Of a DNA stretch of 64,000 nt, positions 42,335-43,152 are shown piece after piece (position 1 is the first letter of the stretch; each line of letters begins with the position of its first letter). A program made the position numbers and the translations under genes. The notes under the pieces are model-generated. The model was not told where the DNA came from. It was given only the letters and a program-made list of their open reading frames with translations, and did no database searches. Source of the stretch: a virus; IMG/VR virus record IMGVR_UViG_3300001041_000002, positions 1-64,000 of that record, one strand, 5' to 3'.

Positions 42335-42415
42335 GGATAGACTGGTAAGTGGGTGAAATCAGCAGACTGTAAATCTGTCGCTTCGGCTATGGGCGTTCAA
42401 ATCGCTCTCTATCCA
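42335..42415 (+). tRNA. tRNA-Tyr (GUA)
   Basis: GGATAGA/TCTATCC acceptor, GCAGA-CTGTAAA-TCTGT anticodon arm, long variable arm, GGGCG-TTCAAAT-CGCTC T-arm. Confidence 0.9.
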
Positions 42416-42438
42416 CAAATCAAATTTTATGTAATATA

Positions 42439-42855
42439 ATGATATTAAAAACGAAAAACCCAGCATATATGTGTTGGAAGATGATGAAAAATAGATGCTC
42501 TAATCCAAATGATCCAAAATTTAAAAACCATGGAGGCAGAGGAATAACTGTATGTAAAGAGTGGGTTGAATCATTTGATAGATTTATCCAAGACATAGGA
42601 GAAAGACCCGAAGGATATACTATAGACAGAATTGACAATAACTTAGGATATTGCAAGGAAAATTGTAAATGGTCATCATATACAGAACAAAACAATAATA
42701 AAAACAACAATATACGATTAACATATAACGGTGAATGTAAAACTGTTTCTGAGTGGGCAAAACACTTAAATATGAATGTACAAACACTATTTTGGAGGAT
42801 AAATAATAATAAAACGGTCTCTGAAATATTATTTAATCATACCCAGAAACAATAA
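42439..42855 (+). CDS. HNH-like homing endonuclease
   Basis: 'GGRGITVCKEW...TIDRIDNNLGY..ENCKW' followed by an HTH-like tail. Confidence 0.8.
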   Translation: MILKTKNPAYMCWKMMKNRCSNPNDPKFKNHGGRGITVCKEWVESFDRFIQDIGERPEGYTIDRIDNNLGYCKENCKWSSYTEQNNNKNNNIRLTYNGECKTVSEWAKHLNMNVQTLFWRINNNKTVSEILFNHTQKQ

Positions 42856-42879
42856 TAATATTAAAATATACAATTTTTG

Positions 42880-43152
42880 TTGACGCTTATCGAAAGACCG
42901 AGTGAGACTCGATGGCAGTAATCGACTCCTCCACTTACGCACACCAATTGAACGCTAACCGGTCGCGTTAGAACCGTTCGATGGCAACTATTGAGTTGTA
43001 AAATAAGGGGGAGAAATAGTATTGATCAGCGGAATGATTAAATAAGAAGAGAAAATTGTAGCTCTCAAAGGGCAAAACTGTTGAACTTTACCGTGAAGTT
43101 GCTATTGCAGCTTAATTAGGTACGTTTCCTAGGGTGTACGAAAACACCCTAA
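42880..43152 (+). ncRNA. ssrA: Circularly permuted (two-piece) tmRNA
   Basis: Acceptor piece GAC-TCGAT-GGCAGTA-ATCGA-CTCCTCCA (ends 42933) precedes the coding piece GGGGGAG...ATTGAT (starts 43007); G3-U70 pair; tag GKTVELYREVAIAA* at 43071-43115. Outer boundaries are approximate. Confidence 0.88.

Follow-up and report, generated by a model that had tools for sequence, protein, structure and literature searches.

A two-piece tmRNA was reportedly described in Caulobacter by Keiler et al. in 2000. Genes of the alphaproteobacterial type, including those of marine phages (Rfam model RF01849, alpha_tmRNA), are permuted, carry the T-loop GGCAGUA and the motif GAAAUAG after the acceptor strand, and are expected to give two base-paired pieces. 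Their viral representatives scored 128-141 bits over the full length of RF01849, and the combination of GGCAGUA and GAAAUAG was found in 75 alpha-type viral tmRNAs. The two-piece tmRNA of phage Melnitz has been published (PMC9004378), and in Table S1 of that paper 14 crAssphages have the entry 'Permuted' and cr106_1 has the entry 'linear'. The Rfam model tmRNA_permuted (RF04321) was built in PMC11915505. We searched the literature on permuted tmRNA in Crassvirales, crAss-like phages and Bacteroidetes and found no paper that discussed the family in its text.

The gene described below lies in a window by which we mean the whole stretch of DNA analysed, 64,000 nucleotides long. Permutation, T-loop, GAAAUAG and the expectation of two base-paired pieces are common to this gene and to those of the alpha type. 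However, in alpha-type genes the CCA is encoded, the model is matched over all its 355 positions and the tags start with ANDN, whereas the window gene had no CCA and a GK tag start and matched the model only in its tRNA-like domain.

Permuted tmRNA genes of the Suoliviridae in RefSeq (cr60_1, NC_055891.1; cr114_1, NC_055897.1; cr50_1, NC_055868.1; cr10_1, NC_055875.1) belong to the same virus order as the window, Crassvirales. An earlier sequence-only reading of this DNA had proposed a check of database entries from that order, and permuted tmRNAs were indeed carried by cr60_1, cr114_1 and cr50_1, where the annotated features were called permuted by ARAGORN with the tags GNTSYVMDYTRLAA, GNFYVTDYTRIAA and GNNFVTDYTAIGA; a tmRNA feature was also annotated in cr10_1. 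In these genes the parts are arranged as in the window gene: first the T-arm with the 3' acceptor strand, then the intervening segment, the 5' acceptor strand, the P2 strands, a short spacer and the tag. The CCA is likewise not encoded, GGC is the resume codon, and most of the tags end in AA. These genes differed from that of the window in that their T-loops are canonical, their D-loop analogue contains GG (UAGGCAUUUGAC, UAUGGAUUUGAC) and ARAGORN calls them. Moreover, their intervening segments were about 170-230 nt long, sometimes enclosing a tRNA, and their tags started with GN, compared with 73 nt and GK in the window. Our own model R1 did not reach the Suoliviridae permuted genes at E 0.001.

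Several side observations were made on crAss-like tmRNA genes. In cr114_1 (L210:766-838, NC_055897.1), ARAGORN called a tRNA-His within the intervening segment of this permuted gene, and a tRNA-like T-arm was similarly located inside that of cr50_1 (L211, about 860-890); in such cases tRNA processing alone would free the two pieces. In cr53_1 (NC_055889.1, L212, about 690-930) there was a homologue of the permuted cr60_1 tmRNA, with the tag GNTSYVMDYTGIAA, the stop codon UGA and the T-loop UUUGAUC; RefSeq does not annotate it, and ARAGORN did not call it. In the crAss-like record G019 (L168:1133-1675, minus strand), a group I intron (RF00028, 76.1 bits) adjoined a standard tmRNA match shortened to 46.6 bits. 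The intron appeared to be in the 3' (T-loop) part of the tmRNA, and the sister genomes G020 and G016 had the uninterrupted gene.

Compact permuted tmRNAs of other phages (L186-L206 and the cultured Chryseobacterium phage MA9V-3, PV245944.1, whose annotated tmRNA was called permuted by ARAGORN) shared with the window gene the covarying P2a-d helices, the short spacer before GGC, the lack of pseudoknot 1 (PK1), the GK tag start and the 3' hairpin. Unlike the window gene, they had a canonical elbow identical to the Flavobacteriaceae ACUGGUUUUGAC, and mostly came from non-crAss-like phages. The one-piece tmRNAs of Bacteroidota (L217-L220; RF00023) and of the Steigviridae-like cr106_1 (NC_055871.1) resembled the window gene in G3-U70, the discriminator A, the absence of an encoded CCA, GGC and the AA tag end. 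However, the Bacteroidota RNAs were 392-399 nt long and matched RF00023 in full, including the pseudoknots, whereas the window gene was permuted, would give about 215 nt of RNA in two pieces and lacked PK1-PK4. The novelty proposed in the sequence-only reading was not upheld, since permuted tmRNAs were already present in the RefSeq annotation of crAss-like phages and the 14 'Permuted' crAssphages in Table S1 of PMC9004378. Thus, the phage two-piece tmRNA is a known kind of gene, and the window gene is an unusually divergent member of it.

Layout and detection of the candidate gene

The window covers the first 64 kb of an IMG/VR virus record that is complete at 101,419 bp and has direct terminal repeats. 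The sequencing runs that contained its DNA were groundwater metagenomes, none of them recorded as RNA. The major capsid protein was 54-56% identical to those of the crAss-like phages cr108_1, cr106_1 and the PhiCrAssBcn phages, and capsid, portal and terminase matched the corresponding PHROG families. The nearest classified relatives were Steigviridae (capsid 55% identical), which carry one-piece tmRNAs. With a probability of roughly 0.85, the region from 42871 to about 43151 on the plus strand would be a tmRNA (ssrA) gene that is circularly permuted and functional in this groundwater crAss-like phage, a divergent member of a phage-borne compact two-piece family descended from the Bacteroidota one-piece tmRNA.

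The sequence-only reading had placed a permuted two-piece tmRNA at 42880-43152. The T-arm, CTCCTCC-A, the 73-nt segment, GGGGGAG, the tag frame and the hairpin were recovered base for base at the positions it gave, but its start was too late, as the RNA begins about 10 nt earlier, with P2a at 42871. The permuted two-piece architecture itself was borne out by an RF04321 score above the cut-off, by covariation and by family comparison.

All parts of the gene lie on the plus strand. The acceptor piece starts approximately with the 5' strand of P2a, CAAUUUU (42871-42877), which pairs with 43052-43058. Between P2a and P2b lies the internal-loop motif GUUGACG (42879-42885), conserved in family members: (G)UUGA recurred at the same site in L179, L181, L186, L188, L206, L209 and L213, and was not seen in the four Flavobacteriaceae one-piece tmRNAs that were read. 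The next 5' strands occupy 42886-42905, namely P2b (42886-42890), P2c (42898-42900) and P2d (42903-42905), and pair with 43042-43046, 43030-43032 and 43026-43028, respectively. The T-arm follows at 42909-42925, with the stem UCGAU/AUCGA (42909-42913 and 42921-42925) and the non-canonical loop GGCAGUA (42914-42920). The 3' acceptor strand CUCCUCC (42926-42932) and the discriminator A (42933) close this piece at 42926-42933. The CCA was not encoded, CUU being found instead, and the phage's own tRNA-Ile and tRNA-Tyr also had no encoded CCA.

The intervening segment of 73 nt (42934-43006) is presumed to be removed. It showed little conservation between relatives except for CCAAUUGA and folded into two small hairpins. 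The 5' acceptor strand GGGGGAG (43007-43013) and the D-loop analogue AAAUAGUAUUGA together occupy 43007-43025. All seven pairs of the acceptor helix formed between 42926-42932 and 43007-43013, including G43009-U42930, which corresponds to G3-U70, so the alanine determinant in a 7-bp acceptor helix noted earlier was confirmed. This pair was invariant in the nine aligned sequences, and the discriminator A42933 was present in the window. The 3' strands of P2d, P2c, P2b and P2a are located at 43026-43058, followed by a single-stranded spacer of 12 nt (43059-43070), which is too short for pseudoknot 1. The tag reading frame (43071-43115) runs from the resume codon GGC to GCU and the stop codon UAA and encodes GKTVELYREVAIAA, with an AA end. 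Downstream, the nearly invariant ACGUUUCC precedes an 8-bp 3' hairpin, UAGGGUGU-ACGAAA-ACACCCUA, with the whole element at 43122-43151 and the hairpin strands at 43130-43137 and 43144-43151. This hairpin, which was related to those in L200 and in a microbial-mat contig, probably marks the 3' end of the coding piece.

Pseudoknot 1 matters in E. coli tmRNA. Pseudoknots 1 to 4 were all absent from the window gene because only 12 nt separate P2a from the resume codon GGC and only the hairpin follows the stop codon. In the RF04321 match, the model's PK1 hairpin positions stayed empty. Processing would yield some 215 nt of mature RNA in two pieces, an acceptor piece of about 66 nt and a coding piece of about 145 nt, and the gene is about half the usual size. 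The tmRNA region had a fold z-score of -2.96, and its minimum-energy fold gave the T-arm, acceptor and P2a helices and did not reproduce P2b-d. An alternative tag frame, shifted by +1 and starting from GCA, was open in the window, L179 and L181 and was rejected, its ends being neither conserved nor degron-like.

The permuted Rfam model and ARAGORN gave different answers at this locus. RF04321 matched 42873-43115 over its full length (model positions 1-213) with 52.4 bits against a gathering score of 47 (E 2e-9; E 8e-11 on the whole 101-kb genome). ARAGORN called no tmRNA for the window gene at default settings, with -ps or with -ps80, and gave only spurious calls in other registers with -ps60. 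Thus, of the two tool checks suggested beforehand, the one with a permuted model succeeded and the one with ARAGORN did not. The default-filter Rfam run at gathering thresholds on the whole 64-kb window missed the RF04321 match, which was recovered on 600 bases. At E values up to 10, the window gave no entry for RF01850 or RF01851 (the beta and cyano types); one overlapping match from the same clan, with a lower score, was suppressed. A blastn search of the tmRNA region against 50,697 phage records gave no match. Moreover, the genome-wide profile search of G036 with RF04321 missed the L179 homologue, which a local cmscan found at 31.9 bits; because of this, RF04321 negatives in the genome tally of crAss-like relatives say little about divergent forms.

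Upstream of the gene, an HNH endonuclease ORF (42439-42855, plus strand; phrog_3377, E 1.8e-48) is located between tRNA-Tyr (42335-42416) and the tmRNA. It had no counterpart in the syntenic contig L179, where tRNA-Asn abuts the tmRNA, and this free-standing HNH gene looks like a mobile insertion in a tRNA/tmRNA island. The neighbouring 128-aa protein had no relatives in IMG/VR. A scan for sigma-70 promoters and T-run terminators found nothing convincing beside the tmRNA gene, and no T-run terminator was called. The Bacteroidota -7 motif TAnnTTTG was absent before the window tmRNA and was present, by eye, before several canonical family members. An SmpB gene had been reported as missing from the window, and none was found in the whole phage genome either.

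Close relatives and the compact phage family

A contig syntenic with the window (L179; helicase 80% and portal 81% identical at the amino-acid level) carried a homologous RNA at the same place, right after tRNA-Asn. A third copy (L181), located directly after tRNA-Ile, was found by a core sequence pattern. Contigs with more than 90% capsid identity (G001, G002) did not reach the tmRNA region. A near-identical contig from brine (96% identity) had seven differences; of the six listed, five were in the intervening segment and one was in an internal loop. The tag-based DNA pattern search returned the L179 contig only, and the sole addition from the metagenome pattern scan, L182, had no T-arm or tag and was taken as a chance match.

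A covariance model was built from the window sequence alone, with 30 specified pairs. With this model, L181 scored 73.5 bits and L179 scored 71.2 bits, and neither had a mismatched pair. In the alignment of the window with these two sequences, 90/90 cells paired and 12 of the 30 pairs had changed on both sides, compared with 0 or 1 double-changed pairs in control structures slid by 1-3 columns. When six more distant members were included, 98.1% of the 265 cells paired and 23/30 pairs covaried across the nine sequences. These alignments were fitted to the structure of the model, which favours that structure, but a bias of this kind falls far short of accounting for the double changes counted and for the outcome of the slid controls.

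The changes were spread over the individual helices. The four segments P2a-d, which join 42871-42905 to 43026-43058 by 18 pairs, had none of them broken in the three close sequences, and 16 covaried across the nine. In P2a, 7/7 pairs held in the window, L179 and L181, four of them with double changes, and 7/7 covaried across the nine sequences; in P2b, P2c and P2d, every pair was kept and compensatory changes were present. The T-stem was GCGCU/GGCGC in L179 and L181 and GNGGG/CCCNC in the canonical members, and acceptor pair 6:67 was A-U in the window and U-A in L179 and L181.

The tag frame was open in the window (GKTVELYREVAIAA), in L179 (GKTVNFSQELLIAA) and in L181 (GKTINLFREVAIAA), with a conserved IAA end, an invariant start GGCAAAACU and synonymous changes (GAA/GAG, AUU/AUA and GCU/GCG). 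Together with the family comparison, the covariation supported the other features first read from the letters, namely a tag of the RNA's own, here starting at GGC, a terminal hairpin and a small size. As a separate observation, ACGUUUCC and the 3' hairpin were almost invariant in these three sequences although their tags and helices had diverged, which exceeds what a terminator would need.

The microbial-mat contig prompted a family pattern in which a canonical T-arm and the 3' acceptor strand are separated by 35-65 nt from GGGGNNNANTGGTTTTGA. This pattern matched 21 IMG/VR stretches. The members found in this way had complementary acceptor strands, no encoded CCA and tags that started at GGC and mostly ended in AA. 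All 13 family contigs searched passed the RF04321 cut-off (48.8-68 bits), and the alpha, beta and cyano models were not listed for any of the 13 loci at gathering thresholds. ARAGORN called most family members 'tmRNA*' (permuted), starting the tags at the homologous GGC, with tags including GKTIEMKMAA, GKQINVNFAASRKLAA and GNNYEMRAAA. In L188, the tag started about 9-12 nt after the end of the R1 match, and other compact members also left a short gap with no room for PK1, so that its absence characterises a variant form of the two-piece tmRNA.

A crAss-type portal was present in 2 of 23 family records; the others included complete phages of 48 kb and 124 kb and a 62-kb provirus. Among prokaryotes, sampled at one genome per species, the single occurrence of the pattern was in an Aequorivita MAG, on a contig of 5.8 kb; no standard tmRNA was found in this MAG. 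The compact permuted family is essentially phage-borne, because prokaryote genomes gave this single occurrence and most records were phages.

Six other genomes of the same family as Aequorivita, the Flavobacteriaceae, had one-piece tmRNAs (RF00023, 140-155 bits). The four that were read (L217-L220) were 392-399 nt long, began with GGGGNCGACUGGUUUUGACAGCGAG and ended with UUGUUUGGAC, the T-arm, the acceptor strand and A, without CCA; the Flavobacteriaceae tags were GENNYALAA or GEDNYALAA, starting at GGC. The motifs of the phage family were equal to those of this one-piece tmRNA: GGGGNCGACUGGUUUUGACAGC, UUGUUUGGAC before the T-arm, no CCA and the GGC resume codon. For example, L186 and L203 began with GGGGNCGACUGGUUUUGACAGCAAG, and L203 had UUGUUUGGAC before its T-arm. 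Judging from these shared motifs, the compact phage family is of Bacteroidota-type descent and became permuted independently of the alpha, beta and cyano lineages. The independent permutation proposed for the single gene could therefore be maintained at the level of the family, whose motifs are Bacteroidota one-piece motifs and not the ones typical of alpha, beta or cyano tmRNAs.

The elbow and competing explanations

The window gene departed from its family in the elbow. The T-loop was GGCAGUA in the window, TTCGTC in L179 and L181, and TTCGANT in the other members, and the 5-bp stem covaried throughout. GGCAGUA was confined to the window; the near-identical brine contig covers the T-arm, and no change was listed there. 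The D-loop analogue was AAAUAGUAUUGA in the window, with no GG, AGUAGUAAUUGA in L179 and L181, and ACUGGUUUUGAC in the canonical members and the hosts. Thus, the elbow contact usual in tmRNA may have been lost in the window RNA. The novelty of the window gene is this degenerate elbow and not the kind of gene.

The microbial-mat contig, which shared the window's intervening segment and tag, had a canonical T-arm with the T-loop TTCGATT, and ACUGGUUUUGAC / GGGGCUGACUGGUUUUGAC. In it, a canonical T-arm and 5' end were joined to a window-like intervening segment and tag (window 42929-43127), with 186 other letters between them, and related phages seem to exchange modules of their tmRNAs.

As far as these sequences go, the alpha-like T-loop is a local state within a Bacteroidota-type lineage, because the relatives carried TTCGTC and the microbial-mat contig a canonical T-arm. 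We read GGCAGUA as a putative case of convergence or drift rather than of alphaproteobacterial ancestry. It is conceivable, although we regard it as doubtful, that the sub-lineage rebuilt its elbow from the canonical Bacteroidota form, losing the GG of the D-loop, and that the window branch reached GGCAGUA and GAAAUAG, otherwise a hallmark of alphaproteobacterial and mitochondrial tmRNA.

The altered elbow also bears on whether the gene still works. It could block normal trans-translation, and the RNA would then be a tmRNA-derived decoy that titrates host SmpB or AlaRS, or a decaying relic that does nothing. Such a role would fit a T-loop that is non-canonical and varies within the sub-lineage (GGCAGUA, TTCGTC, canonical) and a D-loop analogue without the GG of hosts and canonical members, and there is a precedent in mycobacteriophage DS6A, whose CDS-less tmRNA reportedly acts in E. 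coli as an inhibitor of the endogenous tmRNA (PMC11915505). However, 30/30 pairs were kept, together with G3-U70 and the motif GAC that precedes the T-arm, as were the tag frame and AA end, with synonymous changes, in three diverged sequences. The 12 compensatory pair changes would not be expected of a relic, and conservation of the reading frame would be unnecessary for a decoy. We consider both forms of this explanation unlikely, and the window tmRNA gene is real and, from its pattern of conservation, probably functional.

Acquisition from an alphaproteobacterial-type permuted tmRNA of a bacterium or phage, with GGCAGUA and GAAAUAG inherited rather than convergent, is highly improbable: both motifs are those of the 75 alpha-type viral tmRNAs and RF01849 matched the tRNA-like domain locally at 43.4 bits, but that score was below the cut-off of 50 and covered only positions 82-172 of 355, L179 had no alpha match and shared the T-loop TTCGTC with L181, the microbial-mat contig with the window-like segment and tag had a canonical T-arm and ACUGGUUUUGAC, alpha genes have a GGGGGCG/GGGGGTG-type acceptor besides their CCA and ANDN tags while the window has no CCA and a GGC/GK start like the Bacteroidota type, and the P2 helices aligned with the Bacteroidota-phage family. 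The alphaproteobacterial kinship hinted at by the T-loop in the sequence-only reading was not supported, as the nearest relatives have TTCGTC and the related metagenome contig the canonical TTCGATT.

Proposed mechanism and implications

From the sequence, the secondary structure, the alanine identity pair, the reading frame and their conservation, we infer each step of the following route. A single precursor would be transcribed, probably together with the upstream tRNA island. RNase P would cut before G43007, a 3' tRNA-processing activity would trim after A42933, and the host CCA-adding enzyme would add the CCA. The acceptor stem and P2a-d would keep the two pieces together, the acceptor piece having about 66 nt and the coding piece about 145 nt. 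Host AlaRS would charge the RNA through G3-U70, and host SmpB and EF-Tu would deliver it to ribosomes stalled on broken mRNAs. Translation would resume at GGC 43071 and stop at UAA 43113, adding A-GKTVELYREVAIAA, an AA-ended degron for host proteases; the protease-resistant variant of this tag, with its AA end changed to DD, would be A-GKTVELYREVAIDD. The phage would probably gain from ribosome recycling during mRNA decay and the takeover of host RNA synthesis. More specific uses, to counter host RNases or toxins or to redirect tagging, had been suggested in the sequence-only reading as possible roles.

The window gene was a concrete example of a tmRNA that scores above a curated threshold and is still missed by ARAGORN and by the default Rfam filters. 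Its elbow belongs to a series (canonical, TTCGTC, GGCAGUA) on an otherwise constant scaffold, which can be used to ask what the minimal requirements of a tmRNA are. If the convergence is true, two-piece tmRNAs would repeatedly settle on the same non-canonical elbow; in this case, either permutation and elbow geometry would be structurally coupled or the SmpB binding mode would have changed.

With the window gene, the range of the family reaches past gut phages into a crAss-like lineage from groundwater, and one-piece and permuted forms both circulate in Crassvirales. A standard tmRNA was found in 6/13 complete, more distant crAss-like genomes, in one of them beside a group I intron. The recurrence of tmRNA, standard or permuted, as cargo of crAss-like phages suggests a general benefit, namely that ribosomes are kept free during infection.
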